NCBI GenBank assembly: GCA_015232535.1
Contig: JADFZM010000001.1
Span: 35,263-99,262 of the forward strand
Source: Candidatus Omnitrophota bacterium
GTDB taxonomy: Bacteria; Omnitrophota; Gorgyraeia; Zapsychrales; Zapsychraceae
Direction of reading: 5' to 3'
Length of the DNA: 64,000 nucleotides
Positions 1 to 39,314 of this stretch are shown in pieces. Each line of letters opens with the position of its first letter. The first letter of the stretch is position 1. A program made the translations under genes and the position numbers. The notes under the pieces were generated by a model. The model saw only the letters and a program-made list of their open reading frames with translations, ran no database searches and was not told where the DNA came from.

Positions 1-100
1 CGCAATTCCGGTCTCAAGAAAAGGAAAGCCTCCTCTTCTTCTTCCTTTACTCTCGATTATCGAGCGTGTCGTGTTTAATGCCATAAGAAACTCCTCTCCC

Positions 101-805
101 TCAATAGGTGACTCTGTTATATTCCCGCACGTCTTCGTCGACTTCAGCGTAATGAAACATCTTTTCTTTATATCCAAAAATAAAGGCGTAGAAACAAGCC
201 GGTATTTTCCTAACATAAGCATGGAAATGGCTGGCCGCTTCGTTATAGGCCATGCGCCTTTCCGCTATAAGGTCTTCGGAACGGATAATCCCCTGCATCT
301 GGATTTGAAAGTTTTCGCTTAATTTTAATTGCGGGTAAGCCTCGGCTAATGCTAAAACCTTAGAAATAGCGGTATCGAGGCTTTTTCCTTTTAGTTTCGA
401 GACTTCGGTTAAACCGTTTTTCTGTAAAACGTCCATGATAAGCTCGCTTTTCATCGGATCAGGGCCACCGTCGCGGCTATCGGCCATATATTGGAACATT
501 GCCCTTTCGTGTTGAGCATAGGCAATGATCGTATTAGTCAGGTTGATAAAAATATCTTTTCGCCTTTGCAGTTGGACGTCTATTTGGTGCTGTTCCATCT
601 CGGTAAAACGGGAAAGCGCGATGAATTTATTGTAGTAATAAATGCCCAGAAGGATTAAAGCTGTTGCGCAAACGGTAAGGATAATTCCGGAGGTGGTTTT
701 TAAATTATTAAAATCGATCTTTTGCCACCAATGTTTCTTAACCGGAGATAATTCTTCAAAATCCCGGGGAAACATCTTTTTAATCGTTTCGGACATTCTT
801 ACCAT
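101..805 (-). CDS. LemA family membrane protein (MamQ-like by family)
   Basis: N-terminal TM helix followed by LemA-type core (QLQRRKDIFINLTNTII...AYPQLKLSENFQIQMQGI); 234 aa. Confidence 0.75.
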   Translation of the reverse strand: MVRMSETIKKMFPRDFEELSPVKKHWWQKIDFNNLKTTSGIILTVCATALILLGIYYYNKFIALSRFTEMEQHQIDVQLQRRKDIFINLTNTIIAYAQHERAMFQYMADSRDGGPDPMKSELIMDVLQKNGLTEVSKLKGKSLDTAISKVLALAEAYPQLKLSENFQIQMQGIIRSEDLIAERRMAYNEAASHFHAYVRKIPACFYAFIFGYKEKMFHYAEVDEDVREYNRVTY

Positions 806-843
806 TTTATATGCTCCTTGGCTTTAAATAAGTCATACATTAA

Positions 844-1689
844 TTAACCGTGTTTCTTGCGCTCTAAATCCATCGCTTTTTTAAAGCAAACGATCGCGTC
901 TTTATGGTCCCCGGAATTCTCGTAAACAAAACCGAGGGCGTGGTAATAAACCGGTTCCCGTGGGTCAAGGTCGATAGCTTTTTTGTACATCTTTTTTGCT
1001 TCCTCTATTTGTTCCGATTTCTCGTAACAAGTCCCGAGGTTATAAAAGGTGTCCGCGTCGTCGGGATTGATCTCCGCCGCTTTTTGGAAATAACCTAAAG
1101 CCTCGGTATAATTTTCCAGGTGCAAAAGGCATTTGGCAAATTCGAAAATGATATCCGGATCATTCGGGGTTAATGAATCGGCTTTTTTAAAATAATCGAT
1201 AGCATCCTTGTGCTGGCTTAGGTTGACATGGCACATTGCCGACATATACATGACCTCGGCATCTTTTTCGCCTTCTTCTTCTTCTTCTTCTTCGATGTAA
1301 ATTTCAAAATGCTCGAGGGCGCGGGCGAAATCGTTTTTTTGAAAGAATTTGATCCCCTCTTCTTTTTCGAAACTGCGCTTGATGCCCTCATCATGTTTTA
1401 CAAAAATGTCTTCGTAAACCTGGCTTAATCCCTTGATTATTTTTTCGGTCGTTGAGAGCGTGCGGTAAGCGCCGAGTTTTACGTTCTTTAGGATATCGGC
1501 CTTTGGCTTTTCATATGTTGATTGTTTTGATTTTTTCGTCCTGCGGGCTTTTGAACGGCTTTCAGATGAGCCCTTTGACCCAGTATCATCGGATGAATCA
1601 TCAATATCATTTTCGATATCTGCTTCTTCTATAGGTTCTGTTCTCTTTTTTCTCTTCAATTCTTCCATTTTTCCCTCCATGGTACGCAT
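844..1689 (-). CDS. Tetratricopeptide-repeat protein with acidic/basic low-complexity N-terminus (MamA-like architecture)
   Basis: About five TPR-like helical pairs (AIDYFKKADSLTPNDPD, ALGYFQKAAEINPDDAD, AKKMYKKAIDLDPREP, AIVCFKKAMDL); a poly-Glu run is encoded by the GAA repeat at 1273-1293. Confidence 0.75.
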   Translation of the reverse strand: MRTMEGKMEELKRKKRTEPIEEADIENDIDDSSDDTGSKGSSESRSKARRTKKSKQSTYEKPKADILKNVKLGAYRTLSTTEKIIKGLSQVYEDIFVKHDEGIKRSFEKEEGIKFFQKNDFARALEHFEIYIEEEEEEEGEKDAEVMYMSAMCHVNLSQHKDAIDYFKKADSLTPNDPDIIFEFAKCLLHLENYTEALGYFQKAAEINPDDADTFYNLGTCYEKSEQIEEAKKMYKKAIDLDPREPVYYHALGFVYENSGDHKDAIVCFKKAMDLERKKHG

Positions 1690-1777
1690 GTTCTGTAAAA
1701 AGTTTTTACTTTAAATATCCTTATCTTCTGCCATTACAAAAAGTTCTGTTTCTGTGGTTTGCCTCCACTATTAAGAT

Positions 1778-1862
1778 CCCCCTCCCTCGATGGGAGGGGA
1801 AAGGGGAGGGTGGAAATTAAAATTATCACCCCCACCAAGCCTCCCCCGTCAAGGGGGAAGGA
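1778..1862. other. GC-rich structured element: perfect 8 bp GC hairpin (ccctcc-tcgat-ggaggg type), a G3-A-G4-AAA-G4-A-G3 run, and a second C5/G5 hairpin
   Basis: Read directly from sequence between the CDF gene stop (1931) and the TPR gene start (1689); it stands out in an AT-rich genome. Confidence 0.35.
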
Positions 1863-1930
1863 AATATTTCATATCTCCAATCCTATTTTATAGACAATTT
1901 TCATAAAACTATTGACACTATCGGTACGCA

Positions 1931-2884
1931 TTATTGCATGACCGGATTTAGTTGTTTACGGGTGATTACCTGTTTTGGGCTGCGAATAACCCCTATTTTC
2001 GTTTCCTCCTGATTGTCCCTGCAGGTAAAAGTTAGGGTGACGTCTTTTATCTGAATGAAACGCCTAAGAAGAGCCGCTCTTACCTCGCGGGTAATCGCAT
2101 GGCCCTCTTCCACTGTCCTTTGGGGATCGATAAATATTTCCATATCGACCCAAGCCTGTTGCCCGACCCGCCGAACGTGCATATAATTTATGCCTTTTAC
2201 CTCGCGGTATTGCATGATAACTTTCTCGATCAAGGCTTTCTTATCGGCGGGAAGCGATTCGTCGATAAGGTTTTTGAGAGCGGCAATGCCTAATTTTATG
2301 GCCATACGCCCGATCATGAGCCCGACGAAAAATGCGGCTAATGAGTCGAGAATGGTTATCCCTAAGTTTGCTAAAAATATACCGATAGTGACTCCGATCG
2401 ATGAGATCATATCCGAGCGGTTCTCGTTAGCGTTCGCTATTAAAGCCGGGGAATTCATCTTTTTGCCGGCGCAGAAACCGTAAGAAGATAAAATATAGTT
2501 GGCTAAGATAGCTACTATAGCGCAGAAAACGGCGGCCGGATGCGGCGGATGTATATTCCCGCTGGCGATAGCCAATCCGGCATCCCAGAGAATTACAATC
2601 GCTATATAAAGAAGCAAGGTATAAGCAAATACAGCTCCTAGGAATTCCGATTTGCCGCGGCCCCAGGGGTATTTTTTGTCGCTTTTTTTCTCCGAGAGCC
2701 CGACGGTAATAATTACCATTATTGTGCAAAGAACGTCCGTACCGGAGTGGATACCGTCGGCTATGAGCCCTTTTGATCCGGCCAAAGTACCGACGATTAT
2801 CTGGAATGCGGATAGGGTCGTATTGCCCAGAAGCACCATCCAGGGAACGGTTTTAGCGCATTTTACGCATTTATTTTGAATCAT
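1931..2884 (-). CDS. Cation diffusion facilitator (CDF) family divalent-metal efflux transporter
   Basis: Six TM helices with CDF signature (FQIIVGTLAGSKGLIADGIHSGTDV), His/Asp-rich TM2/TM5 sites and a C-terminal cytoplasmic metallochaperone-like domain; 317 aa. Confidence 0.85.
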   Translation of the reverse strand: MIQNKCVKCAKTVPWMVLLGNTTLSAFQIIVGTLAGSKGLIADGIHSGTDVLCTIMVIITVGLSEKKSDKKYPWGRGKSEFLGAVFAYTLLLYIAIVILWDAGLAIASGNIHPPHPAAVFCAIVAILANYILSSYGFCAGKKMNSPALIANANENRSDMISSIGVTIGIFLANLGITILDSLAAFFVGLMIGRMAIKLGIAALKNLIDESLPADKKALIEKVIMQYREVKGINYMHVRRVGQQAWVDMEIFIDPQRTVEEGHAITREVRAALLRRFIQIKDVTLTFTCRDNQEETKIGVIRSPKQVITRKQLNPVMQ

Positions 2885-2897
2885 ATTTTATAAACCT

Positions 2898-3788
2898 TCA
2901 ATCAGCCGGCAATATTTGAATAGCGATATGGCCGATATATTTGTTTTGATCGCGCAAAAGAGATTTGATCCTTTGATTTATTGTCTTTGCTTCAAGTACT
3001 GTTAATTTAGGGCTTAATTGAAGGACAACGTCCAATATTACATACCTTCCTGTCTGCCTGGCGCGCACGTCCTTAACTTTTTCAACCCCGTTTACTTTCT
3101 TTATAAAATCTTTTATCGGTTCGGTGAAATTATCCGGCATGTTTGTATCCATGACCCCTCTTGTGCCCTCTTTCAAGATCATAAAGCTCCCGTGCAGTAC
3201 ATGCAAACACTCGAAAATAGCTATTGCCGGGTCAACCCAGTGCATGCCTTGTCTGGTAACAAGCACGCCCACCGCGACCAGTAATGAGGAGATAACGTCT
3301 ATCTTATTATGCTCGGCATGGGCTTTTAATACCGGGCTGTTTAGCTCCTTACCTCCGCAATGGGAGAATTTATAGAGGAGCGCGTTCACGATGGCGCTTA
3401 AAATTGCTACAAAAAATACAACCATATGCTGTATGACCAAAATACGCTTTGCGATTACCATAAAAGAACTGAAGATAAGCGCTATAGTACCAAGGATCAT
3501 AAAAAAGCTGATAATAACCTGGGCGATGAATTCAATCTTTCCGTAACCATATGGATAGCGGGAATTAGCAGGCTTTTTTGAATACCTTACCCCTATTATT
3601 ACCGCGACGGAAGATGTTACATCGCTCAAGTTGCATAATCCGCTTCCGAGTAAAGCGCGCGACCTTCCCAAAAATCCGACAAAGATCTTAAATGCCGCCA
3701 GGATAAAATTTGCCAAGAGCCCCCAGGCAATTGTTTTATTGGCGCAGGCTTCGCATTTAGCCGGATTTTTAATTTTTGCGGCGCTCAT
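2898..3788 (-). CDS. Cation diffusion facilitator (CDF) family transporter, second tandem copy
   Basis: CDF TM core (ALLGSGLCNLSDVTSSVAVIIG ... HAEHNKIDVISSL) plus C-terminal domain; 296 aa; 4 nt from the previous CDF gene. Confidence 0.85.
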   Translation of the reverse strand: MSAAKIKNPAKCEACANKTIAWGLLANFILAAFKIFVGFLGRSRALLGSGLCNLSDVTSSVAVIIGVRYSKKPANSRYPYGYGKIEFIAQVIISFFMILGTIALIFSSFMVIAKRILVIQHMVVFFVAILSAIVNALLYKFSHCGGKELNSPVLKAHAEHNKIDVISSLLVAVGVLVTRQGMHWVDPAIAIFECLHVLHGSFMILKEGTRGVMDTNMPDNFTEPIKDFIKKVNGVEKVKDVRARQTGRYVILDVVLQLSPKLTVLEAKTINQRIKSLLRDQNKYIGHIAIQILPAD

Positions 3789-4063
3789 TATTCTTCATCC
3801 TCAAACAGAGGTTTTTCATCTTCCGGTAATTCTTCCAACTTCTTCCTTCTTTTAATTTCTCCCCCGATTATTGTAAAGGTCCAAAGCGTCGAGATAACAC
3901 CCAAAAAGAAAGACGCCAGAATTATGTAAATCAGCCCGATATGCCTGCCCTTGAAAAGGGGGATCCAAATACGGACCGGGTCCACGTTCTCGAATATAAA
4001 GAAAACAAGCAATATTACGAGCAAACTGAAAGAGGTGATTTTAAATACTGTAGCTGCCCTCAT
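3788..4063 (-). CDS. Small membrane protein, LapA/DUF1049-like, with acidic C-terminal tail
   Basis: Two hydrophobic helices then KRRKKLEELPEDEKPLFEDEE; overlaps hemL stop and CDF start by 4 nt and 1 nt (operon-embedded). Confidence 0.45.
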   Translation of the reverse strand: MRAATVFKITSFSLLVILLVFFIFENVDPVRIWIPLFKGRHIGLIYIILASFFLGVISTLWTFTIIGGEIKRRKKLEELPEDEKPLFEDEE

Positions 4064-5361
4064 TTTGATTCCTTTATTTTTAATAAAGCATTCTTTATTG
4101 AATGGGCTGTTTTGCTGATTGTTGAATTATCATGAGCGGATGAAACAAAACAAGCCTCATATGCCGAAGGAGGAAAAAGTATCCCTTCCTTAATTAAGAG
4201 GGAAAACAGCTTTGCGTATTTGTTTTTATCAGCCCTTAAGGCGTCTTTATGGCTCTTAACTTTTCCGGATGTGAAAAATACCGTAAAAATTGAGGCAATC
4301 GAGTTTATCGTTAAATCCATATTCAATTTAGCGGATTCTTCTTGAATAATCGCGGTAATTTGTCCGGTTTTTACCTCCAGAGTTCCGTAAATATTATCAT
4401 TTTTATTTAAAGTTTCAAGTGTTTTAATGCCGGCGGCTGTTGCAACCGGGTTACCGGAAAGCGTTCCGGCTTGATAAACAGGCCCTATGGGTGCCAAAAG
4501 CTCCATTATCTCTTTCTTACCGCCGACCGCGCCTATGGGAAATCCGCCGCCGATAATTTTTCCCAGGCAGGTCAGGTCGGGTTTAATATCATAAAATCCC
4601 TGCGCTCCGCCTAATCCTAGACGGAAGCCGGTGATAACTTCATCAAATATAAGCACTATTTTTTCTTTGAGCGTTATTTCACGTAATTTTTTAAGAAAAT
4701 CTTTTTCGGGTAAAACTACCCCTGTGTTGCACAAAACAGGTTCAACGATCACGCAGGCAATTTCATTCTTGTTCTTTTCGATAGCGGAATTCAGAGTTGC
4801 AATATCGTTAAAAGGAACGGAAATAGTGTCTTTAGTATAAGCCGGCAATATGCCCTCGCCCGAAGGAATCCCTAAGGTTAAATTTCCCGAGCCGCTTTTA
4901 ACCAAAAGGCTGTCGAAGTGGCCGTGATAACTGCCGTCAAACTTGATGATCTTTGTCTTTCCGGAAAATGCCCGGGCGAGGCGGATTGATGTCATGCAGG
5001 CCTCGGTGCCGGAGGTTACTAAACGTAACCTATCGATGCTTTTGATATTTTTCTTAATTAGTTCAGCGAGGCGGACTTCTCTTTCGGTTGCTAATCCGAA
5101 ACTCGAGCCGTTTCTAACCGCCGAAATAGCCGCTTTTACGACCGGCTCATAAGCGTGGCCTAATATCCCGACCCCCCAACTCATAACATAATCGATGTAT
5201 TTATTGCCTTTTGTATCGAATATATAAGGCCCGGTTGCTTTCTCGGCAAAGATTATCGGGGTTTCCATTGCTTTAAAACTCCGCACCGGAGAATTGACCC
5301 CTCCGACCAGAGATTTGATGCTTCTTTCGGAAATAGATTTTGGTTTATCAATTGCCATCAT
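4060..5361 (-). CDS. hemL: Glutamate-1-semialdehyde 2,1-aminomutase
   Basis: Class III aminotransferase fold, 433 aa, SLVGGVNSPVRSF ... YIDYVMSWG motifs typical of HemL. Confidence 0.93.
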   Translation of the reverse strand: MMAIDKPKSISERSIKSLVGGVNSPVRSFKAMETPIIFAEKATGPYIFDTKGNKYIDYVMSWGVGILGHAYEPVVKAAISAVRNGSSFGLATEREVRLAELIKKNIKSIDRLRLVTSGTEACMTSIRLARAFSGKTKIIKFDGSYHGHFDSLLVKSGSGNLTLGIPSGEGILPAYTKDTISVPFNDIATLNSAIEKNKNEIACVIVEPVLCNTGVVLPEKDFLKKLREITLKEKIVLIFDEVITGFRLGLGGAQGFYDIKPDLTCLGKIIGGGFPIGAVGGKKEIMELLAPIGPVYQAGTLSGNPVATAAGIKTLETLNKNDNIYGTLEVKTGQITAIIQEESAKLNMDLTINSIASIFTVFFTSGKVKSHKDALRADKNKYAKLFSLLIKEGILFPPSAYEACFVSSAHDNSTISKTAHSIKNALLKIKESK

Positions 5362-5843
5362 AATAAACTCCCAAGCGAGAGCATTTCTTTCTTAAGTTCT
5401 TTTCGGGTAAAGAGCACTGCCGGCTTGATGCGGAAACCCGCCCCTTTTTCATTGACAAAATTTCTGATCTCTTTTACTGATTTAGCGTGCATCATGGTAA
5501 ATGTATCGTAATTAAATGATTTATGCGGTGTTCTTTTATAACAATGCGAGATGCGGTCATCATCAATAAATGTCTTTTTTATGAACTCATCTTTATTGCC
5601 GCAGGTAAACCCGTCCATATTCCAGGCGATAAGTGCGTTTTTCGCGTAACCGGCCCTTTTGTGGTTAAGGACCCCTCGCAGATTCTTAATTATCTTTTTT
5701 TGAGAAAGTTTGTTCAGGATCGCTATTAGCTCCTCTTCTTGCATAAGCAAAGCCGCCGCGGCCTTTGTGAATGGACGGGGCGAGATCTCAAGCTCATTTT
5801 TAGAGAAATACCCGGCAACTTTCTTTTCTTTATCAGTTAACAT
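5358..5843 (-). CDS. Siroheme decarboxylase subunit (AhbA/AhbB, NirD/L/G/H family, AsnC-type HTH)
   Basis: About 160 aa AsnC-like HTH plus C-terminal domain; sits with a paralogous neighbour between radical SAM heme genes and hemL. Confidence 0.7.
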   Translation of the reverse strand: MLTDKEKKVAGYFSKNELEISPRPFTKAAAALLMQEEELIAILNKLSQKKIIKNLRGVLNHKRAGYAKNALIAWNMDGFTCGNKDEFIKKTFIDDDRISHCYKRTPHKSFNYDTFTMMHAKSVKEIRNFVNEKGAGFRIKPAVLFTRKELKKEMLSLGSLL

Positions 5844-6300
5844 TAAGGTTAAGCCTTAATTTATATAATTTTTCCGTAGGAAGGCTGACTATTTCCTTTG
5901 GTTTTAACTTCTTTTTCAATTCATCGAGATTAAATTTAAGCTCCTGTTTTGAGCGGGCGCTTAATGTGAACCACATGTTTAAGCGGTGTTCCCTTAAGTA
6001 ATTGTGGCTTATATTTTGTCGGTTATTGATTATTTCCCTAGTCGTTTTTATTTTCTCTTCGGGGATTTGACAACCGATCAAAGTGCTGACAAGCCCGAGC
6101 TTCTTCGTGTTAAAACTGAAATTAATCCTTTTAAGCAGTTTTTCCTTCTTAAGCCATTTAAGGCGCGAAATAAGCTCTCTTTCTTCGATCCCGCATGATT
6201 TTGCCAAGCTTTTATAAGGCTCGGCAGAGATCTCCAAGCCCTGCTGGGTTTTTGATAAAATACTTTTCATTAAATCGTCTAAATAATATTTCTTACTCAT
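5833..6300 (-). CDS. Siroheme decarboxylase subunit (AhbA/AhbB family), start moved to internal Met
   Basis: AsnC-type HTH (LAKSCGIEERELISRLKWLKKEKLL). The ATG at 6298-6300 forms an ATGA overlap with the upstream radical SAM stop; the ORF-track N-terminal extension would overlap that gene. Confidence 0.68.
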   Translation of the reverse strand: MSKKYYLDDLMKSILSKTQQGLEISAEPYKSLAKSCGIEERELISRLKWLKKEKLLKRINFSFNTKKLGLVSTLIGCQIPEEKIKTTREIINNRQNISHNYLREHRLNMWFTLSARSKQELKFNLDELKKKLKPKEIVSLPTEKLYKLRLNLNVN

Positions 6301-7316
6301 GAGGCAACCGCCTCTTTTGCTAAAACGCAAGTCCTGTCTTCGGACATAAAATCTCCCGTATCGGCAAAGGCCCTGGCGCGGCAACCGCGGCAAGAAATCT
6401 TATATCCGCAATCTCCGCAGCTTCCTCTGAGGTCATTTTTCCTCAATGCGTTAAACACAATCGATCCTTTCCAGACTTTCCCGATGGAATTCTTCCTTAA
6501 GTTACCGGCGGTAATGGGCAAGTATCCGCAGGGATAAACGTATCCTCTTGAGGAGATGAATAAAACCGATGTTCCCGCCAGGCATCCTCCGGACATTTTG
6601 CCTTCCGAAAACCTTACATATTGCGGGGCGCAAGTCGGGCGTATCTCTAAAGAAGATGACTCCGAGATGTTTTTTATTTCCCTAAGAGCTTCTTCAATAT
6701 CATTTGCCTCTAATCTTGATTTATCATCGATTTCCTTCCCGCAGCCGACCGGAACAAGAACAAAATAATGAACAGCCATGGCTTTTATCGAAAGAGCTAA
6801 ATCGGCGATTGTGCGGATTTCGTTAAGGTTGTTCTTGGTCACGGTAAAGTTGATTTGAAAAGGGATTTGCTCTTTCCTTAATATGTCAGCGGCATTCACG
6901 GTCTGTTTAAAGGCGCCTAAAACTCCCCGGGAAGAATCATGCTTCTTTTCATCGCTTGAATCAAGGCTTAGGCTGACGCGGCGGACACCGTATTTTTTTA
7001 TAAGGCCGGCCTCTTTCTCTTTTAATAGAACACCGTTAGTAGCTAAGGCCAAAGTTAATCCTTTTTGAGCGGCATAAAACATGATTTCAAAGATGTCTTC
7101 TCTTAATAAAGGCTCGCCGCCGCTTAAGACTAGAACGGAAGAGCCGAAGGATGTTTTTATAGAATCGATCAGGCGAAAGGCTTCGGCAGTTGTCAGCTCA
7201 TCGCCCGATTCGCTTTTTGTCATCCGGCAAAAGGCGCACTTAAGGCTGCACTTTTTTGTTGTTTCCCAAAATATCATTCTGGGGATCAGATCCACTTTGT
7301 TGCCTCCTTGGCCCAA
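6297..7316 (-). CDS. Radical SAM/SPASM protein of the NirJ-like AhbC/AhbD type (Fe-coproporphyrin synthase or heme synthase)
   Basis: CxxxCxxC cluster (CSLKCAFC), SGGEPLL glycine-rich SAM motif, C-terminal SPASM Cys cluster (GSCGDCGYKISCRGCRARAF). Confidence 0.75.
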   Translation of the reverse strand: MGQGGNKVDLIPRMIFWETTKKCSLKCAFCRMTKSESGDELTTAEAFRLIDSIKTSFGSSVLVLSGGEPLLREDIFEIMFYAAQKGLTLALATNGVLLKEKEAGLIKKYGVRRVSLSLDSSDEKKHDSSRGVLGAFKQTVNAADILRKEQIPFQINFTVTKNNLNEIRTIADLALSIKAMAVHYFVLVPVGCGKEIDDKSRLEANDIEEALREIKNISESSSLEIRPTCAPQYVRFSEGKMSGGCLAGTSVLFISSRGYVYPCGYLPITAGNLRKNSIGKVWKGSIVFNALRKNDLRGSCGDCGYKISCRGCRARAFADTGDFMSEDRTCVLAKEAVAS

Positions 7317-8275
7317 TAACTGATAATTATGTCCGCGCCGGCGCGTTTAATAGACTGAAGTATTTCAAGCGCAACCGACTTTTCGTCCAGCCACCCTTTT
7401 AAGTGCGCCGCTTTGACCATTGAATATTCTCCGCTGACATTGTATGCGGCTATAGGGATATTCACTTTATCGCGTATGGATTGTATTATATCCAGATAAG
7501 ACAAGGCCGGTTTCACCATGACTATATCCGCGCCTTCCTCGATATCGAGAAATATTTCGCGAATGGCCTCTCTTTTGTTGCCGAAATCCATTTGATACCC
7601 TTTTCTGTCGCTTCCCTTCGGGGTTGAATCGTATATCCCCCGGAACGGGCCGTAAAAATTCGAAGCATATTTTGCGGAATAACTAATAATTGATGTGTCG
7701 GTAAACCCGTTTTTGTCGAGGGTTTCTCTGATTGCTTTCACCTGCCCGTTTGCCATAGCGGACGGCGCAACCATATCCGCTCCCGCTTTAGCGTAAGAAA
7801 CGGCGATTTTGGCTAAAGTTTCCGCGGTTTTTGAGTCATCAATTTGAAGATGAGCCCCGTTTTTGCCGCTTGTTTTCTTAGCTATGCCGCAATGGCCGTG
7901 GTCTGTAAAAGCGCATAAGCATACATCAGCGATAATTATCAAATCGCTCGACTTTTTAATGTTCTTTATAGCCTTATGGAATTGGCTTTCTTCGTTATAA
8001 CTAGATGAGCCGGAGGAGTCTTTTTTAGGCGATGAACCAAAAAGCAAAATGCTTTTTATGCCGGACTTTCCCAAAGCCTCCGCCTCTCTAAGAAGGCATT
8101 CGCTCGAGAATTTATTAATGCCCGGCATCGAAGGCACAGCTTCGGTACCTTTGCCATCTTTGAAAAAGATAGGCATTATTAAATCATCAATATTTAATTC
8201 TGTTTCGCGCACTAAAGAACGTAACAGAGGGTTTTTTCTTAATCTGGTAGTCTTATTTTTGAGCGACAAAGGCAT
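7286..8275 (-). CDS. hemB: Porphobilinogen synthase (delta-aminolevulinate dehydratase)
   Basis: N-terminus MPLSLKNKTTRLRKNPLLRSLVRETELNIDDLIMPIFF aligns with classical HemB start; active-site region DVCLCAFTDHGHCG; the start at 8275 is an internal Met of the ORF-track call. Confidence 0.92.
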   Translation of the reverse strand: MPLSLKNKTTRLRKNPLLRSLVRETELNIDDLIMPIFFKDGKGTEAVPSMPGINKFSSECLLREAEALGKSGIKSILLFGSSPKKDSSGSSSYNEESQFHKAIKNIKKSSDLIIIADVCLCAFTDHGHCGIAKKTSGKNGAHLQIDDSKTAETLAKIAVSYAKAGADMVAPSAMANGQVKAIRETLDKNGFTDTSIISYSAKYASNFYGPFRGIYDSTPKGSDRKGYQMDFGNKREAIREIFLDIEEGADIVMVKPALSYLDIIQSIRDKVNIPIAAYNVSGEYSMVKAAHLKGWLDEKSVALEILQSIKRAGADIIISYWAKEATKWI

Positions 8276-8325
8276 TTTTATTAAATTGTTGAAATCGTTT
8301 ATATTGTTAAGCTGTTTGATCAAGG

Positions 8326-9483
8326 TTAAAGTATTGATTTTGATTCGTTTACTAAAACATCCTCTGTTTTTGTTGAAGTTTGCTCTAAGTAACAAGCCGG
8401 GTCTTCAGCCCAAAGTGAGCCGTAATAAGCCTTTGCCCGGGCCCGGCATCCGCCGCATATTTCTTTATGCCGGCAAGAACCGCAGCGGCCTTCTAAGTGG
8501 TCTTTCTTATTTCTAAATTGTTGAAGCAGTTCATTGTTCCGGTCGTTAAGAATATCAAATAGCGGTTTTTTGCGCACATTGCCTAAGAGCGAATCACGCA
8601 AGAATTGACATGGAAAAACGTCGCCGTTTGAATCAAGATAAACAACCCTATCCCCCGCAGAACAGCCGCGGTGCGCTGTTATGCATGAAACAGCCTCTTT
8701 TTTATCCGCAAGGTTTTCAAGCATAAAAATACCGTCTGCAGGATTATCGGTTGTAAGCACTTCAAATTCAGGGTCTTTAAGTGATATTTCTCGGACCTTA
8801 AGCAAGAATTTCTCCATTAATTTCCTTTTGTCCTCCAGAGGCAGGTCTTGTTCTGACGAAGCCCTTCCGGAATATACCAAATGATAAAGGCAGAAGCGCT
8901 TAGTGCCGCTTTGAACTGTTTTATCAAGCACATAAAATAGGTCATAACTATTTGAAGCGGTTAAAGTAAATCTTACCCCGGTTTTCACTCCGGAATTGTT
9001 TAAGAGCTTTATACCTTCCCAGCTTGCGTTAAATGAGCCGGTAGAGCCGCGGAAAATATCATGCCATTCTTCCCTGCCGTCTATGCTGACTCCTACATAA
9101 TCGACTTTGGCTTCTTTGATCTTCTTGGCCATTTTGGTATTTATCAAGGTGCCGTTAGTTGAAAGCCCGACGCGCAGCCCTTCGTCCTTGCAGGCTTTGA
9201 TAATATCGAAAATATTAGGGCGTAAAAGCGGCTCCCCTCCGCTAAGCAATACAATCGGGGGGTTTAGCTTCTTGATCTCACTTGCCAGGTTTATGCACTC
9301 TGTATCGGTAAAATCAGCTTCTTTTAATTCCGGAGATGATTCGCGATAACAATGAGCGCATTTTAAATTGCATTTGCTTATAATATTCCAGACAAACAAA
9401 GGGCCCATTGCCCTTAAGGTATGTTCGGTCCTCTCGCCTTTATGTATTTTAGTCCATGGGATCATAATGAATTCTCCAGGCAA
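8326..9483 (-). CDS. Radical SAM/SPASM protein of the NirJ-like AhbC/AhbD type
   Basis: CNLKCAHCY cluster, LSGGEPLL motif, C-terminal SPASM cluster (GRCGSCRHKEICGGCRARA). Confidence 0.75.
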   Translation of the reverse strand: MPGEFIMIPWTKIHKGERTEHTLRAMGPLFVWNIISKCNLKCAHCYRESSPELKEADFTDTECINLASEIKKLNPPIVLLSGGEPLLRPNIFDIIKACKDEGLRVGLSTNGTLINTKMAKKIKEAKVDYVGVSIDGREEWHDIFRGSTGSFNASWEGIKLLNNSGVKTGVRFTLTASNSYDLFYVLDKTVQSGTKRFCLYHLVYSGRASSEQDLPLEDKRKLMEKFLLKVREISLKDPEFEVLTTDNPADGIFMLENLADKKEAVSCITAHRGCSAGDRVVYLDSNGDVFPCQFLRDSLLGNVRKKPLFDILNDRNNELLQQFRNKKDHLEGRCGSCRHKEICGGCRARAKAYYGSLWAEDPACYLEQTSTKTEDVLVNESKSIL

Positions 9484-10970
9484 GATTTGATCAATCCGGC
9501 AACCGTATGTTCTTTTGCCGAATGTATCTGCCTTATCCCGATTTTCTTGAGCATCCCGGTTGTGACAGGGCCGATAGAATAAAACGGGGTCTCTTCGGTT
9601 AAGGAGCCGTTTATATTGCTTGGAATATTGGCAAAGAATGTTTTAACTGATTTAGGGCTTAAAAAGAATATTCCGTCGGACTTCTTGGCGAGGGCCTTGG
9701 CTATCCTTGTTTTATCGGGCTGCCCTTCAATGTTATACACTGTGCAATCGGTTAGCTTAGCCCCGGCTCTAATTAAAATTCCTTTTAGATAATCGCGGTC
9801 AAGGCTTGTGCGTAAAAGAGCGATATTTTTATCATTAATACCTTTATTTCTCAGAGCTATGGCTAAATTCCTGGTGGTGAACTTATCCGGCATAAGCGCC
9901 GGGTTTATACCGAATTTTATGAATTCTCCCGCTGTTCCTGACCCGACGCAAGCAATCCTTCCTTTTAGCAGGGTTTTATTTCTGTTTAATGCAAAAAATC
10001 TCTTCAGAAAATAATATACGCCGTGTCGGGAGGTAAAAACAAGCCAGTCAAAGGCCTTAATATCGGCGATTATGTTATCAAGGTATGATGTGTCCTTATT
10101 TGGAACGACTTTTATCATCGGTAGTCGTTCAACCTTAGCGCCTAATGATTCTAACCCGAGGGAAATATCATTGTTTAATGTTTCGCTGGCTGTTGAGATA
10201 AAACTTTTGTTTGAAAGAGGTTTTAAGTTAGGATTCAGGCGGTAAGCAAGCTTAACCGTATCGCCTATAACACAGATAGCCGGAGCTTTTAAATCAGCGG
10301 ATTTATTGGCGATCCGAGCTAAATTAGACATAACAACTTTTTCTTTATCCGTCGTGCCACTTTGAATGACAGCGGACGGAGTTTTAGGGTCTTTACCGAA
10401 GGCGATGAGTTTATCGGTTATTGATTTAAGGTTAGATAATCCCATCATGATTACTAGAGTTCCCGAGAAATTGGCGGCGTGTTTCCAGTTTATGCTTTCT
10501 TTTTCTTTAGACGGGTCTTCGTGGCCGGTTAAAACCATAAAACCGCTTGAAACGCCACGGAAAGTGAGAGGTATCCCGCACACTTCGGGAACAGAATAAA
10601 AAGAGCTTACTCCCGGAATAACTTCGCAATCAATATTGTTTTCTCTTAAAAACAGCATTTCTTCCTGGCCGCGGCCGAAAATAAAAGGATCGCCGCCTTT
10701 AACTCTGGCGACTGTCTTGCCTTTTGAGGCAAAAGATAGGATGGTTTGGTTTATCTTTTCTTGATCTATCGATCGTCCCTTTTCTTTTCCTACAAATTTT
10801 AAGATTGCGGATGGCTTGGCATATTTTAATATGTCTTTGGAAATAAGCCGGTCGAAAAGGATAACGTCTGATTTCTTCAGGCATTCAACGGCTTTGAGGG
10901 TTAAAAGCTTAGGGTCCCCCGGTCCTGAGCCGATCAAATAAACTTTTCCATTTTTTATTTTATTATTCAT
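9462..10970 (-). CDS. cobA: Uroporphyrinogen-III C-methyltransferase fused to uroporphyrinogen-III synthase
   Basis: N-terminal half has the SUMT signature (VYLIGSGPGDPKLLTLKA ... VARVKGGDPFIFGRGQEE); C-terminal half is HemD-like (AFDWLVFTSRHGV). Confidence 0.88.
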   Translation of the reverse strand: MNNKIKNGKVYLIGSGPGDPKLLTLKAVECLKKSDVILFDRLISKDILKYAKPSAILKFVGKEKGRSIDQEKINQTILSFASKGKTVARVKGGDPFIFGRGQEEMLFLRENNIDCEVIPGVSSFYSVPEVCGIPLTFRGVSSGFMVLTGHEDPSKEKESINWKHAANFSGTLVIMMGLSNLKSITDKLIAFGKDPKTPSAVIQSGTTDKEKVVMSNLARIANKSADLKAPAICVIGDTVKLAYRLNPNLKPLSNKSFISTASETLNNDISLGLESLGAKVERLPMIKVVPNKDTSYLDNIIADIKAFDWLVFTSRHGVYYFLKRFFALNRNKTLLKGRIACVGSGTAGEFIKFGINPALMPDKFTTRNLAIALRNKGINDKNIALLRTSLDRDYLKGILIRAGAKLTDCTVYNIEGQPDKTRIAKALAKKSDGIFFLSPKSVKTFFANIPSNINGSLTEETPFYSIGPVTTGMLKKIGIRQIHSAKEHTVAGLIKSCLENSL

Positions 10971-11862
10971 TAATCTTTTTCAACTGTATCTTTAAACTGG
11001 CGATTAAATTGTCTGTAATTCCTGAGGCATTGTCTTTCGCCCCTTTTTCACTTTCCTTTATGAAACATTTTGCTTTTTCGCTGTAATATTTCGCGTTTAT
11101 TGAAAAGTTGCCTTTAATAAATTTGGCATAAACACCGAACGGTGTCCGGCAACCTATTCCTAAAGCTTTCAATACATTTCTCTCTAAAAGAGCGGATTTC
11201 TCCGTTTCAATACAAGAGCTTTTTCTAAGAATACTGTTTAAATCCTTATCGTTATCCCTTGTTTGAGCGCAAATTATGCCTTGCCCGGCCGCAGGGACAA
11301 AGCTTTCGCTGTCGAAATACCGGACGATCAAGTTTTCATATCCTAATCGTTTCAAACCGCAAGCAGCCAATATAAGCCCGTCGTATTTGCCCCCGTTCAT
11401 CTTTCTGATGCGGGTATCGATATTCCCTCTTATGGGCAATACAATCGCTTTGGGCTCGATTTCTTGTATAAAGTACATCCGACGCGGGCTGTCTGTGCCG
11501 AGCTTCAAACCCGCGAGTTGGCCCGATTTTAAACCATCGCGCAGTACCAGGCAATCTCTTCGGTCTTCTCTTTTGGCGAAACAGGACAACTTAGTGCCTT
11601 TTTGAAGTTTCACCGGGACATCTTTTAAACTATGCACGGCGCAATCAATTTCTTTATTTATAAGTGCTCGCTCGATTTCTTTTGTGAAAATGCCTGTTCC
11701 GATAGCCGTAATCTTATTTTTGCGGTCCCGGTCGCCTTGGGTCAGGATAGTTTTTATCCGGTAATCAAGGTTTACATTCTTTCTTTTTAAAAAGGCTATG
11801 AATTCAAAGAGCTGTTTATTCGCTAAAGCGCTTTTCCTTATACCAAAGATTATTCTGCGCAT
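10963..11862 (-). CDS. hemC: Hydroxymethylbilane synthase (porphobilinogen deaminase)
   Basis: KTILTQGDRDRKNKITAIGTGIFTKEIERALINKEIDCAVHSLKDVP motif block. Confidence 0.9.
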   Translation of the reverse strand: MRRIIFGIRKSALANKQLFEFIAFLKRKNVNLDYRIKTILTQGDRDRKNKITAIGTGIFTKEIERALINKEIDCAVHSLKDVPVKLQKGTKLSCFAKREDRRDCLVLRDGLKSGQLAGLKLGTDSPRRMYFIQEIEPKAIVLPIRGNIDTRIRKMNGGKYDGLILAACGLKRLGYENLIVRYFDSESFVPAAGQGIICAQTRDNDKDLNSILRKSSCIETEKSALLERNVLKALGIGCRTPFGVYAKFIKGNFSINAKYYSEKAKCFIKESEKGAKDNASGITDNLIASLKIQLKKINE

Positions 11863-12905
11863 AAAAGTAACGAAGGAAGTACGCCTGTGTTCTTTTTCTG
11901 ATCGAGGTACATTTCCCTTCGGATTATCTCCTCCGCTTTGTTCGCTTCGATCGAGCGGCTATAGAGTGTTCTATCAATTACCGGCGATAAGTCATCGATA
12001 TTGTATAGCTTTACACCGGCAATATTCCTAACCGCTTCCTCAACATTTCGAGGCACGCCAAGATCGACGAAAATAATTCTTTTATGACGGCCGTGCAATA
12101 TCGCGCTCACCATATCTTTGCTGATAATATGAGGAGCGGCAGTGGCGGCGACAACTATATCTGAAAGCGCGATTTCTTTTGCTATCTTTGAGAAATCGGT
12201 AACGCGCACGTTAAGCTTAACTGCGGCGTTTTTGGCTTTTGCTATATCGCGGTTTGTAACAACGATTTCCTTAAGGGGAAGCTCGGATAGTTTCTTTGTT
12301 GTCATAACGCCTATTTTCCCGGCGCCGATTACAAGAATTCTTTTATTCGATAAATCCTGTTCCTTTTTAATAAGGTCGACAACAACTCCGGATATCGAGG
12401 TAACTCCGCGGGATATGCCGGTCAAGCTGCGAACTTTCTTCCCTATGCGCAGGGAATCCTGAATAGTTTTATGCAGTATAGAGCCTATTGCCTTTGATGA
12501 ATCGGCTTTTTCATAGGCCTTTTTGATCTGGCCGAGGATCTGGTTTTCTCCTAAAACCATTGAGTCCAGGCCGCTCGCCACCCGGTTAAGGTGTATGACC
12601 GCCTCTTCGTTGGTTTTATTGTAGAAGTAATGCTCAATATAACTTTGCGGTAATTTATGCGTGCGGCAGATAAAATTTGTCAGCTTAGCGGTAATTTTAG
12701 AAATGCTTTCTCCTACGGCATATATCTCGACCCGGTTACATGTTGAGAGCATCAAAGCCTCTTCTATATCCAAATTGGATGATAGTTCGCGGTAATATTT
12801 ACTCAGCGATTTATCCTCAAAGCTGAATTTTTCGCGTATTTCTAGCGGGGCCTTTTTGTGGTTTGTCCCGATAAGAACAATATTTAAGTTATTGCTGATA
12901 GGCAT
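11850..12905 (-). CDS. hemA: Glutamyl-tRNA reductase
   Basis: LSTCNRVEIY catalytic Cys motif; NADP-binding LVIGAGKIG. Confidence 0.9.
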   Translation of the reverse strand: MPISNNLNIVLIGTNHKKAPLEIREKFSFEDKSLSKYYRELSSNLDIEEALMLSTCNRVEIYAVGESISKITAKLTNFICRTHKLPQSYIEHYFYNKTNEEAVIHLNRVASGLDSMVLGENQILGQIKKAYEKADSSKAIGSILHKTIQDSLRIGKKVRSLTGISRGVTSISGVVVDLIKKEQDLSNKRILVIGAGKIGVMTTKKLSELPLKEIVVTNRDIAKAKNAAVKLNVRVTDFSKIAKEIALSDIVVAATAAPHIISKDMVSAILHGRHKRIIFVDLGVPRNVEEAVRNIAGVKLYNIDDLSPVIDRTLYSRSIEANKAEEIIRREMYLDQKKNTGVLPSLLLCAE

Positions 12906-13677
12906 GATGGCTTACCATAAACAGGCTTACGCCGAAGAAAGTTGTTAACATGGCTAAAAATCCCACAACCGAGATGACCGATAGCCAAAAGTGTTTAAGT
13001 TTAAATGCTTTTTCCAGGATCACAGCCAAAGCGTAAATTATAAGGGTGATTAGCGCCCAGGTCTCTTTTGGGTCCCAGTTCCAATAAGTTCCCCAGGCTG
13101 TATGCGCCCAAATCGAGCCGGTCGCTATGCCGAAGAATAAAAGTATTACTCCGAAAATAATAAGGCCGCTATTCAAAGGCTGAAGGCCTTTTGTGTCTTT
13201 GCCCCTTTTCTCGGCGATTATCGAATAAACGCTTATAGCAAAAGAAATCCCAAAGGCGCTGTAACTTAAAATAATTGCCGGAACGTGTATTCCCAGCCAA
13301 AAACTTTTTAAGAGCGGGTTAAGCGGTTGGATTGTTTTATCCAGCGTTAGGTCGTATATTAAGATAATATCAAACAATAAAAACGCCAATCCCTGTATGA
13401 TCTTCCCGGTATTTTCTTTGATAAAAATGATATAGACAGCGCTTAAAAGCCAGGCGTAAAAATAAGTGATCTCAAAAAGCGAGACCATTGGCAGATGCCC
13501 CTGTTCGCGGTACCTTATAATAAGGTAAAAGAAACCGGCGGTTAAAGCGACTATCAGCCATTGCTTTGAGTAAGTGAAAAAAACGGGCTGCTTTTTGGAA
13601 ACGAAAAGAAGATACAAAACAGTCCCGATCAGATAAAAGAATGCGGATGTATAGAAAAATAATATGTTATATTGCAT
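12889..13677 (-). CDS. CcsA/HemX-family cytochrome c assembly membrane protein
   Basis: Polytopic membrane protein with Trp-rich WWD motif (WAHTAWGTYWNWDPKETWALI) and conserved His residues; it occupies the hemX position of the hem operon. Confidence 0.78.
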   Translation of the reverse strand: MQYNILFFYTSAFFYLIGTVLYLLFVSKKQPVFFTYSKQWLIVALTAGFFYLIIRYREQGHLPMVSLFEITYFYAWLLSAVYIIFIKENTGKIIQGLAFLLFDIILIYDLTLDKTIQPLNPLLKSFWLGIHVPAIILSYSAFGISFAISVYSIIAEKRGKDTKGLQPLNSGLIIFGVILLFFGIATGSIWAHTAWGTYWNWDPKETWALITLIIYALAVILEKAFKLKHFWLSVISVVGFLAMLTTFFGVSLFMVSHHAYQQ

Positions 13678-14122
13678 TAGCTAGTTTATCCCTAATTGCT
13701 TTTGCTTTTGCCGGGCTTTGGCCGTTTGTAGAAATACCTATGGTCAGCCCTTTTCTTTTTAATATTGCCGGCATTATTATTGAGCCCGGCCCGCTTTTAT
13801 CTACTACATTGACTAAGGTATTCGCTTTATTAGCGTCGGATAATACTTTCTTATTGACTTTAGCGTTATCTGTTGCCGCTACTATCAATTTATATTTCTT
13901 TAATGAAATATTCTTAGGATAAAGGGATTTTATGCATTTTATCTTCCCTTTTGACCTTAAACGTTCAATCGGCGCGATTATTTCCGGGCTGATACAGGTA
14001 ATTTTTGCCCCGAAATTTCTGAAGACCGATATTTTCCTATAAGCTACTTTTCCTCCGCCGACGACCAAACAATTTTCGCCTTTTACCTTGAGGCATACCG
14101 GCATATAGCTGCATAATTTCAT
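13667..14122 (-). CDS. Precorrin-2 dehydrogenase / sirohydrochlorin ferrochelatase (SirC/CysG N-domain type)
   Basis: Rossmann GGGKVA motif (CLVVGGGKVAYRKI); about 150 aa; first gene of the heme operon. Confidence 0.78.
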   Translation of the reverse strand: MKLCSYMPVCLKVKGENCLVVGGGKVAYRKISVFRNFGAKITCISPEIIAPIERLRSKGKIKCIKSLYPKNISLKKYKLIVAATDNAKVNKKVLSDANKANTLVNVVDKSGPGSIIMPAILKRKGLTIGISTNGQSPAKAKAIRDKLANAI

Positions 14123-14132: not shown

Positions 14133-15323
14133 TTACCTCTTTTTTAAAATAATATGACAAACATTACATTTCCCGCGGTATTCATGCGGGGAAACAGCTC
14201 CTTTTAATATAGGAGGAGGATTAGGCAAAATATCTCCCGCATCAGTCGGCAGCTGTCCTCCTGTTTTCATAATAATATGACAGGCGGTACAAGGCTTATT
14301 ACGGCTTCTGTGCGGGCTAAGAGCTCCGGGTGTTATCGGTTGAGCGGCCTCGTTTTGTGAAAACCCTAAACTTCTTTTTGATGAAATAGTATATTCGATG
14401 ATTTGCCCTCTGCGGGAAACTATAACCTTAGCCTTAAACCTGTTTTTTACCATTCTGGTTGCTTCAGTAAAAGCAACTAAATCCGGGGTGGCTATCTTTT
14501 CAATTCCAACAACCATATCTCCGGCCAAAACTCCCGATTCAGCCGCCTCGAGAGATATCTCATCGATCAACAACCCCTTTGTATTCGGCGGGATATTGAA
14601 TTCCGTGGCTAACTCAGGCGTAAGGGGAATAAGCTCCATACCGAGCCAATGCCCTTCGATAAGTTCTTTCGATGCCGCCCCTTGCTCTTTAGGAGTAGGC
14701 AGCTGCAAATTAGGGTCAACCGGAGCCGCATTCATTGTGCCGGCTTCGGCTGTTTCTGCCGGAGAATTATTGGCAAAAGCGATTTGATGAGCCGCAGGAT
14801 CGGCATTGTTTTGCTGTTGGGGTTTAGCTTCTAAGGGTACAGAGTTAGAATCCCCGGGAGCGTTTTTACCCGTAACGCCCATATCAAGGTTAAAAACGCG
14901 CTTGATATTGTCATGAATGCCTAATTTGTTTTCCAGGGTTATATAAAGCGGCTGGCCGTTTCTTAATATATCTAAAAGAGCGCCTTGGTCCAAGCTTGTA
15001 TCTTTCGTAACCTTTAGAAAGTCGGATATTTTCTTTGTTTTCTTATTATTGATCGATTTTATAAGGTCTCCGCTGCGTACACCCGAACTGTAAGCCGGAT
15101 CCTCACACCAATTTACAACAACCCCAGCTTCATCTTTCGGTATATAAAATTCCATGGCATTAGCCGGTGTGATATCGCTTACCGACATTCCGGCCCACTC
15201 TGCCTCACCTGCCCCGATGTGCATCAGCGCCGCGAGAAAAATAAGGCCTATCAAGCAAACGGATAATATAAGGAAGAACCTTTGCTTGTTTTTATGTTTA
15301 TATTCGGCTAAGATGTTAGGCAT
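14133..15323 (-). CDS. Membrane-anchored PDZ-PDZ protein with two C-terminal CxxCH heme motifs of magnetochrome type (MamP / MamE-Cter-like)
   Basis: N-terminal TM, two PDZ-like segments (GVRSGDLIKSI; GVLAGDMVVGIEKI), then SPHRSRNKPCTACHIIM and SPHEYRGKCNVCHIIL. Confidence 0.6.
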   Translation of the reverse strand: MPNILAEYKHKNKQRFFLILSVCLIGLIFLAALMHIGAGEAEWAGMSVSDITPANAMEFYIPKDEAGVVVNWCEDPAYSSGVRSGDLIKSINNKKTKKISDFLKVTKDTSLDQGALLDILRNGQPLYITLENKLGIHDNIKRVFNLDMGVTGKNAPGDSNSVPLEAKPQQQNNADPAAHQIAFANNSPAETAEAGTMNAAPVDPNLQLPTPKEQGAASKELIEGHWLGMELIPLTPELATEFNIPPNTKGLLIDEISLEAAESGVLAGDMVVGIEKIATPDLVAFTEATRMVKNRFKAKVIVSRRGQIIEYTISSKRSLGFSQNEAAQPITPGALSPHRSRNKPCTACHIIMKTGGQLPTDAGDILPNPPPILKGAVSPHEYRGKCNVCHIILKKR

Positions 15324-15335: not shown

Positions 15336-15611
15336 TTAGTCTTTTTTGATGGAGGCTTTTTCTTCTGGTTTTAACTCGATCCGCTCAATTGCCGTATTAC
15401 AATCTTTACAGACCCAAAGTTGTCTTTTAGACCCGGTCATGTATAAGCCCATAATGAGTAAGGGTATCCCCAGAACCGGACCGATGAAAAAAAGCGATGA
15501 AAATACACCGCCAACTATTAATACTCCTCCGAATTTACGGCTGTGGCGCGGCCCGGAATAAGGCTGCATTTCTCCGTTACACAAATTACAAATAAGCGAT
15601 TTATCAGACAT
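15336..15611 (-). CDS. Small membrane protein with split zinc-ribbon (CxxC ... CxxC) flanking a TM hairpin
   Basis: CNLCNGEM at N-terminus, hydrophobic core, CKDCNTAI at C-terminus; 91 aa. Confidence 0.45.
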   Translation of the reverse strand: MSDKSLICNLCNGEMQPYSGPRHSRKFGGVLIVGGVFSSLFFIGPVLGIPLLIMGLYMTGSKRQLWVCKDCNTAIERIELKPEEKASIKKD

Positions 15612-38987: not shown

Positions 38988-39019
38988 ATTGATTCTCCTT
39001 TAAAACAGAATGGTTAAGA

Positions 39020-39247: not shown

Positions 39248-39272
39248 TCTTGCTCCCTTCCATTATATTAGT

Positions 39273-39295: not shown

Positions 39296-39314
39296 GTAAA
39301 TTCTCAAAAAAATA

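Follow-up and report, generated by a model that had tools for sequence, protein, structure and literature searches.

The stretch examined here, called the window throughout, comprises 64,000 nucleotides (nt) of contig JADFZM010000001.1 (positions 35,263 to 99,262 of the forward strand) in the Candidatus Omnitrophota bacterium assembly GCA_015232535.1. Positions 4060-14122 of the window, on the minus strand, are an 11-gene tetrapyrrole operon, and this hem/ahb block sits as one unit within a mamAB-like magnetosome operon of an uncultured member of the Omnitrophota, with mamP on one side and a module of a LapA-like gene, mamM and mamB on the other. Along the minus strand the locus reads MamE, a PDZ protein, a magnetochrome protein, MamP, the hem block, the LapA-like protein, MamM, MamB, MamA and MamQ. 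Families were assigned with Pfam and NCBIfam profiles, and structural relatives by a sequence search of the PDB; the open reading frames (ORFs) scanned for domains were essentially all tiling minus-strand ORFs of at least 130 amino acids in the window. All 14 genes listed in a preliminary description of this DNA are present on the minus strand, with the coordinates and in the order given there (ORF list, Pfam, NCBIfam). The hem block consists, in minus-strand order, of the following genes:

13667..14122, minus strand: SirC-like precorrin-2 dehydrogenase, a short 151-amino-acid form without the C-terminal domain (TIGR01470, 112 bits, cutoff 62)
12889..13677, minus strand: HemX/CcsA-like heme-handling membrane protein, 262 amino acids, with a WWD motif (PF01578, Cytochrom_C_asm; TIGR03144, 148.3 bits, cutoff 187.6)
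11850..12905, minus strand: hemA, glutamyl-tRNA reductase, a short 351-amino-acid form (TIGR01035, 330 bits, cutoff 209; GlutR_N and Shikimate_DH)
10963..11862, minus strand: hemC, hydroxymethylbilane synthase (TIGR00212, 268 bits, cutoff 164; Porphobil_deam)
9462..10970, minus strand: cobA-hemD fusion, uroporphyrinogen-III C-methyltransferase and uroporphyrinogen-III synthase (TIGR01469, 275 bits, cutoff 185; TP_methylase and PF02602 HEM4)
8326..9465, minus strand: AhbC-like radical SAM/SPASM enzyme of the Fe-coproporphyrin III synthase type (Radical_SAM and SPASM; NirJ1 308, AhbC 305, NirJ 302 bits)
7286..8275, minus strand: hemB, porphobilinogen synthase (NF006762, 435 bits, cutoff 297; ALAD)
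6297..7295, minus strand: AhbD-like radical SAM/SPASM enzyme of the heme b synthase type (Radical_SAM and SPASM; AhbD, TIGR04545, 319 bits; NirJ2 307 bits)
5833..6300, minus strand: AhbA-like siroheme decarboxylase subunit (NF040708, 138.2 bits, cutoff 140; PDB 4CZD_A, E 2e-28)
5358..5843, minus strand: AhbB-like siroheme decarboxylase subunit (NF040707, 99.9 bits, cutoff 125; PF17805 and PF22451 above cutoffs)
4060..5361, minus strand: hemL, glutamate-1-semialdehyde aminomutase, the last gene of the block (TIGR00713, 530.5 bits, cutoff 527.3; Aminotran_3)

These family-level identities outline a predicted pathway. HemA, HemL, HemB, HemC and HemD would lead from glutamyl-tRNA to uroporphyrinogen III, CobA and the SirC-like protein from there to sirohydrochlorin or siroheme, and AhbA/B, the AhbC-like and the AhbD-like enzymes from siroheme to heme b by the oxygen-independent Ahb route. 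The methyltransferase and dehydrogenase domains both exceed the cutoffs of their models, and the SirC-like protein, which carries the Pfam domains NAD_binding_7 and Sirohm_synth_M, finds its best PDB matches in the SirC structure 3DFZ (E 1e-18) and in residues 3-145 of CysG. HemA is without the C-terminal dimerisation domain PF00745, as are other Omnitrophota homologues, and the short form (330-360 amino acids) is common to other Omnitrophota homologues and one from Pedosphaera. For the late steps, two adjacent genes carry both AsnC_trans_reg2 (PF17805) and the NirDL-like HTH domain (PF22451) above the Pfam cutoffs; their best NCBIfam matches are AhbA and AhbB, both just under equivalog level, and the closest solved structure for the AhbA-like protein is the Desulfovibrio AhbA/B complex 4CZD. 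The three scores of the AhbC-like enzyme lie far under cutoffs of 515-650 bits, and its homologues at 42-46% identity carry the name Fe-coproporphyrin III synthase. The AhbD-like enzyme ranks AhbD before NirJ2, both under the cutoff of 500 bits, and no solved AhbD matched it in the PDB sequence search. A scan of metagenomes by AhbC-like alignment, which returned mostly distant homologues (36-46% identity; only two were close) and served for context counts and as an outgroup, gave 80 loci in which the neighbours include AhbD-like genes (37), AhbA (31) and AhbB (24). By this context, the assignment of the block as a putative glutamate-to-heme operon of the siroheme-dependent (Ahb) type is well supported. 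The preliminary description had proposed this alternative route, and the presence of two distinct NirJ-like radical SAM/SPASM genes together with an AhbA/AhbB pair supports it; its statement that HemE, HemN, HemG and HemH are absent also holds for the ORFs scanned in the 64-kb window, where neither HemE/N/F/G/Y/H nor chdC was found.

The genes that flank the block on the two sides are those of a magnetosome cluster:

18040..19467, minus strand: MamE-like trypsin/PDZ protease, without CxxCH (NCBIfam Do-family protease 290 bits, MamE 250 bits)
17449..18036, minus strand: PDZ protein of the magnetosome cluster (Pfam PDZ_2 and PDZ_6; position kept in all related clusters)
15879..17411, minus strand: 510-amino-acid magnetochrome protein with a Nitro_FeMo-Co-like domain, repeated CPxC pairs and one CxxCH (Pfam MCR 36.9 bits; CSNCH at residue 482)
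15336..15611, minus strand: conserved cluster gene of 91 amino acids upstream of mamP (no family match in Pfam or NCBIfam; 51-72% identical orthologues at the same position in related loci)
14133..15323, minus strand: MamP-like protein with PDZ domains and two magnetochrome CxxCH motifs, the upstream boundary of the hem block (MCR twice, and PDZ)
3788..4063, minus strand: LapA-domain-like membrane protein of 91 amino acids, magnetosome module (LapA_dom 23.3 bits, below the Pfam cutoff of 28)
2898..3788, minus strand: MamM-type cation diffusion facilitator (CDF) transporter (NCBIfam MamM 250, MamB 190, FieF 117 bits, equivalog cutoff 350; Cation_efflux and ZT_dimer)
1931..2884, minus strand: MamB-type CDF transporter (NCBIfam MamB 240, MamM 208 bits; Cation_efflux and ZT_dimer)
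844..1689, minus strand: MamA-like TPR protein, after a 241-nt gap (NCBIfam best match MamA, 123 bits)
101..805, minus strand: MamQ-like LemA protein (Pfam LemA; MamQ, 99.7 bits, the sole NCBIfam match)

For all the Mam assignments the best NCBIfam match is a Mam model, each time below its equivalog cutoff; the MamP-like protein, for instance, best matches MamP at 209.6 bits (cutoff 300), with CTACH at residue 345 and CNVCH at 386. The MamE-like gene is syntenic with the Trypsin and PDZ gene that follows MamI in relatives. The PDB sequence search was unable to tell MamM from MamB for the two CDF transporters, which the NCBIfam ranking did, and the C-terminal domain of the MamB-type protein matches structures of MamM and of magnetosome-protein C-terminal domains. 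PDB matches of the MamA-like protein are mostly designed TPR proteins, with the MamA structures 4XI0 and 3VTX among them. MamE, MamP, MamM, MamB, MamA and MamQ are thus co-linear, with three CxxCH motifs in two proteins, as expected of a mamAB-type cluster, and the gene order agrees with that of metagenome-assembled genomes (MAGs) published as magnetotactic Omnitrophota; the uncultured organism behind this MAG would be a putative magnetosome former. As the preliminary description had it, the hem operon starts 10 nt after a double-magnetochrome gene, which is the MamP-like gene with its PDZ domains and two CxxCH motifs. Its placing of the CDF genes at the end of the hem operon was not borne out, these being MamM- and MamB-type genes of a magnetosome cluster that runs on into MamA and MamQ, and the label DUF1049 that it gave the 91-residue peptide corresponds to the LapA_dom match under the Pfam cutoff. 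As side observations, the 510-residue magnetochrome protein is rich in Q, N and M and has about six CPxC...CPNC pairs resembling zinc ribbons, its sole CxxCH being C-terminal, and the spacer between mamB and mamA (1690-1930) measures 241 nt against 18-100 nt in relatives and could house an internal promoter or a small gene.

The limits of the block are best seen in related clusters. About 70 close MamM-type homologues were found, almost all from Omnitrophota, and 25 genome loci and several metagenome contigs were compared, with the window proteins mapped onto them. At least 10 other Omnitrophota contigs carry the same block at the same site, with mamP and the LapA-like gene as its neighbours (JADFXQ, JADFXT, two contigs of JADFYJ, JADFYD, JADFYI, JADFYE and three JGI contigs). 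Another 16 related magnetosome clusters, including that of the complete genome CP070807.1 and those of JADFXX, JADFYF and DOGZ01, have the LapA-like gene directly after mamP and no hem genes; their order is MamE, PDZ protein, (magnetochrome protein), small ORF, MamP, LapA-like, MamM, MamB, MamA, MamQ. Because the LapA-like gene directly follows mamP in these 16 clusters, it belongs to the magnetosome module and not to the hem operon, and the hem block is nested in the mam operon, as a 10-kb insert into a spacer of about 10-15 nt. CP070807.1 is also not among the 120 best homologues listed for HemA or for the AhbC-like protein, which is suggestive but no proof that it lacks hem genes. Both boundaries are tight even where MamM is only about 54% identical, and the overlap between the hemL stop and the LapA-like start is kept in the window and in the loci L029 and L032. 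The content of the block varies: the HemX-like gene is absent from L030, AhbD and AhbA are fused into a 480-amino-acid protein in L032 (9936-11378), and L034 (8083-14123) and L035 have lost sirC, hemC, cobA-hemD and hemL while retaining the HemX-like gene, hemA, hemB and the four Ahb genes. L030 and L010 both come from the MAG nDJH6bin5 (JADFYJ contigs 1 and 24) and hold two diverged copies of the hem block and of mamM/B/A/Q (66-91% amino-acid identity), which reflect either two populations binned together or a duplication of the cluster.

The block shares its history with the flanking mam genes. In a neighbour-joining tree of MamM, MamB, MamA and MamQ the clusters with hem genes occupy five distinct positions, some on each side of the deepest split; the hem-gene tree and the tree of the flanking CDF genes have the same topology, and the divergence of the hem proteins equals that of the Mam proteins. 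(The concatenated trees use shared genes only; a version with non-overlapping gene sets gave negative branch lengths and was dropped.) The composition of the block is host-like (GC content 0.42 against 0.44 and 0.43; codon-usage correlation 0.88-0.92), and a foreign origin or recent import was ruled out by this match of GC content and codon usage with the rest of the window. Relics of clusters were also found. In L116 (GCA_022013145.1, JAKLQW010000096.1) a hem/ahb operon lies outside any magnetosome cluster, with unrelated genes upstream. The ORF just upstream of it, a lipoprotein-like sequence of 128 amino acids (5271-5657), ends in GAISPHQYRGKCNNCHVILKK, and over its last 22 residues it shares 77% identity with the C-terminal magnetochrome of the window MamP; a HemX-like relic of 24 codons (6165-6236) lies between sirC and hemA. 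L116 stands inside the clade of embedded operons with 99% bootstrap in the hem tree, rooted with an unrelated stand-alone operon, and looks like the scar of a lost magnetosome cluster. In L028 (JAQTOZ010000109.1, Omnitrophota STB_104, 1-9720) the genes hemA to hemB are followed by a 100-residue mamM fragment (55% identity) and then by a DtxR-like gene, an AhbD-like radical SAM gene, HemE, a HemY-like amine oxidase and ferrochelatase. Late heme genes of the classical or coproporphyrin type are thus present in Omnitrophota, in this case beside a mam relic. L033 is a stand-alone operon without relics and without a confident place in the tree; the FeoB, Fur and kinase genes that flank it were rejected as orthologues of window genes at 27-28% identity. 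Read most simply, this distribution would reflect a single ancient integration, after which the block was inherited along with the mam genes and lineages repeatedly lost either the block or the magnetosome genes. Plain parsimony counts five gains, but that one site should have acquired the same 11 genes several times appears less likely than loss. Transfer of whole cluster segments between relatives is a possible alternative to old co-inheritance in a comparison made with gene trees.

The packing of the genes was assessed with start codons picked on the basis of Shine-Dalgarno boxes, the coverage of the profiles and the overlap of starts with preceding stops. With these starts, the run from sirC to the second CDF gene has overlaps of 1-17 nt at 10 of its 13 junctions, four of them ATGA and one TAATG; the gaps are of 50 nt (first radical SAM gene to hemB, the widest inside the hem block), 13 nt (first to second CDF gene) and 10 nt (mamP to sirC). 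Same-strand junctions outside this run overlap less often in the window (10 of 38; Fisher p = 0.002). Some overlaps hinge on the choice of start: for the AhbD-like gene GTG 7295, which has an AGGAGG box before it, yields a 10-nt overlap and ATG 7277 an 8-nt gap. ATG 9465 of the AhbC-like gene yields an ATGA overlap, ATG 8275 of hemB agrees with the profile start, and the hemL stop overlaps the LapA-like start as ATGA; the longest-ORF starts 9483, 8395, 7316 and 6393 are probably too long. The earlier statement that almost every junction is an overlap thus stands for 10 of the 13, with the range of 1-17 nt, and has to be qualified for the three gaps and for the start-dependent cases. A promoter/terminator consensus scan resembled shuffled sequence (42 against 40.3 and 27 against 26.4) and carried no information on the operon boundaries. 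Translational coupling and co-transcription across the operon are plausible from this arrangement.

Other accounts of the locus were weighed against these data. A chimeric contig, in which assembly or binning had joined a hem operon to a magnetosome cluster, is conceivable for a window taken from a MAG, but at least 10 independently assembled and diverged contigs (NCBI, JGI and other sources) show these very junctions and the composition is uniform, and we regard such an artefact as having a negligible chance of being true. Also very improbable is a role of the NirJ-like and NirDL-like genes in heme d1 synthesis for a cd1 nitrite reductase, or a block that ends at siroheme; in neither case would heme b be made. 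The nearly equal scores of the AhbC-like protein against NirJ, AhbC and NirJ1 would fit such a role, as would a match of the AhbA-like protein to the NirD-like protein 4CH7 (E 2e-25). Heme d1 synthesis needs one NirJ, however, and the block has two different NirJ-type paralogues, the second of which best matches AhbD; domains of nirS, nirF, nirN and nirE were not found among the ORFs scanned in the 64 kb, the top homologues that carry a name are Fe-coproporphyrin III synthases, and the distant homologues are neighboured by AhbD, AhbA, AhbB and hem genes. The preliminary description had also read the WWD protein as a cytochrome c lyase subunit. On that reading it would be a heme lyase or exporter attaching heme to the CxxCH motifs of the magnetochromes, so that the block supplied both heme and attachment machinery. 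The WWD motif and both flanking His residues are strictly conserved in six orthologues (WGTYWNWDPKETW, GIHVP, SHHAY), the protein aligns to the CcsA part of CcsBA (7S9Y, E 2e-26), and the degraded operon L034 retains the gene though sirC is lost. Nonetheless, the residue aligned with the transmembrane His of CcsBA (H858) is Ile, Val, Ala or Leu; no CcsB/ResB-like partner domain was found among the ORFs scanned in the window; the score is under the CcsB equivalog cutoff (148.3 against 187.6 bits); the gene is absent from the embedded operon L030 and the stand-alone L033; and the order sirC-hemX-hemA recurs in L048, an unrelated operon without mam genes. A lyase role is unlikely on these grounds. 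The gene encodes a small PF01578 membrane protein beside hemA in a hem operon and overlaps both sirC and hemA, and it is read as HemX-like because HemX of Bacillus and Staphylococcus, which lowers glutamyl-tRNA reductase levels, is likewise a PF01578 protein beside hemA (PMC5801465). More likely than a cytochrome c lyase, then, it would be a HemX-type partner of hemA.

The mam operon and the hem block would be read through as one long transcript with translational coupling; this one-unit view is drawn from spacers that are very short or negative at either boundary and from the want of a convincing terminator, in a scan that was itself uninformative. The block would be the heme supply of the cell, with heme output rising together with the c-type magnetochrome proteins and the MamM/MamB iron transporters. 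Taken as a whole, the following reading seems to us probable: a real tetrapyrrole operon that lies within a mamAB-like operon, is transcribed through together with the mam genes and serves as heme supply. Several observations weigh against it. AhbC, AhbD, AhbA and AhbB are all under the NCBIfam equivalog cutoffs, and AhbC is not separable from NirJ by score. No sirohydrochlorin ferrochelatase (CbiX/CbiK/SirB) was present among the ORFs scanned in the 64 kb, so that to call the pathway complete, as had been done, is an overstatement: the ferrochelatase step has no candidate there unless the 151-residue SirC-like protein is bifunctional. The genome beyond the window may hold a second heme pathway, HemE, a HemY-like oxidase and a ferrochelatase being present on the Omnitrophota contig L028. 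The neighbour-joining trees are built on few proteins, and some deep nodes have a bootstrap of only 58-63%. Internal promoters are possible, given a scan like that of shuffled sequence, and the relative L030 has gaps of 136-252 nt inside the block. Finally, magnetosome genes persist in the 16 clusters without the block and so do not depend on the nesting. The same clusters would suit a neutral passenger, that is, a housekeeping heme operon that landed in the spacer between mamP and the LapA-like gene, keeps its own promoters, has no tie to the magnetosome and stays since 10 kb are hard to move; so would the stand-alone versions L033 and L048, the L030 spacers, which are long enough to hold promoters, and the promoter-like matches inside the block, which are no more than expected by chance. 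Against this, the boundary stop/start overlaps are conserved where MamM is only about 54% identical, an argument for maintained read-through; clusters on either side of the deepest split in the tree have the block at one and the same position; and the genes kept inside the cluster by the degraded L034 are the Ahb-specific ones. We therefore hold a mere passenger to be rather doubtful. With some hesitation, and as a possibility, we propose that the hem operon may be a module at work within the magnetosome island. Its transcription together with mamP and mamM/mamB would keep the making of heme b, and hence of the c-hemes of the magnetochromes, in pace with iron import, and heme destined for the magnetosome membrane might be handled by the WWD protein. 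Both the co-transcription and the dedication of the heme to magnetochromes are inferred from gene arrangement.

Further features were noted around the locus. Directly upstream of the mamE region (19957-22150) lie genes for an HTH_17 protein, a FixC-like FAD oxidoreductase and a small ferredoxin-like protein; the trio is also found before MamI in L001 and L034 (56-70% identity for the oxidoreductase and the ferredoxin-like protein) and may be a conserved redox module of these clusters. Further upstream (28991-31181 and 36649-39749) are two tandem actin-like genes (Pfam Volactin, 240 and 248 bits), possibly of the MamK/Mad28 type, and, some kilobases upstream of the mam genes, FeoB and Fur. A VIT1 fragment is located at 51300-51698. 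About 2 kb at 59290-61355 are without an ORF of more than 83 amino acids and show no Rfam or tRNA match and no notable repeats; Rfam and tRNA scans of the window as a whole likewise gave no match.

The Ahb pathway, HemX-type genes and the magnetosome clusters of Omnitrophota are each known, and it is their combination that is new. The Ahb clusters of Desulfovibrio and Methanosarcina barkeri (PMC3942049) similarly unite early hem genes, an AhbA/AhbB pair and two NirJ-like radical SAM genes (formerly Ahb-NirJ1 and Ahb-NirJ2), and in the ahb clusters of M. barkeri the iron chelatase is likewise unidentified within the cluster (PMC3942049); unlike those, the genes described here are 11, contiguous and mostly overlapping, belong to a PVC-group bacterium, lie inside a magnetosome operon, and include short forms of HemA and SirC, with Ahb proteins under the NCBIfam equivalog cutoffs. 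The heme d1 genes of denitrifiers (nirDLGH, nirJ, nirE, nirF, nirN) share homologous decarboxylase subunits and a radical SAM enzyme, whereas the window is without nirS, nirF and nirN and has two radical SAM paralogues, including one of the AhbD type, and a full early hem set. In the HemX operon of Bacillus and Staphylococcus a PF01578 membrane protein also stands beside hemA among early hem genes; here the order is sirC-hemX-hemA, the late steps are of the Ahb type and not coproporphyrin-dependent, and the effect on HemA is putative. With the mamAB-type clusters of Omnitrophota and Nitrospirota (Lin et al., 2020, Microbiome 8:152, PMC7602337) the locus shares the order that relatives show, MamI, MamE, PDZ protein, magnetochrome protein, MamP, LapA-like, MamM, MamB, MamA, MamQ, PDZ+CitMHS and TauE, but the window and about 10 relatives carry 10 kb of heme genes between mamP and the LapA-like gene. 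The main text of that paper, which released most of the related MAGs, makes no mention of heme (PMC7602337), and a full-text search of the searchable, incomplete literature returned no report of heme-synthesis genes in magnetosome clusters. The Omnitrophota are an uncultured phylum in which heme synthesis is patchy (PMC10066038).

If the block proved to be a passenger only, it would be an unusually clear case of a housekeeping operon captured in an organelle operon. Magnetochromes (MamP, MamE, MamT, MamX and their relatives) are c-type heme proteins thought to set the balance of Fe(II) and Fe(III) in magnetite formation, and to our knowledge the origin of their heme has so far lain outside the magnetosome story. 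An anaerobic heme pathway placed between mamP and the iron transporters, and kept there through deep divergence of the clusters, offers a testable link between cofactor supply and biomineralisation. It is also relevant to the transplanting of magnetosome clusters, where heme supply and maturation could limit function in foreign hosts, and the hem block with the mamP and mamM relics provides markers for the gain and loss of magnetotaxis in Omnitrophota. Should the proposed working module be real, the gene cluster of an organelle would come with a cofactor supply of its own, and this supply would survive the organelle genes during decay of the cluster, as is suggested by the relics of mamP and mamM next to hem genes.

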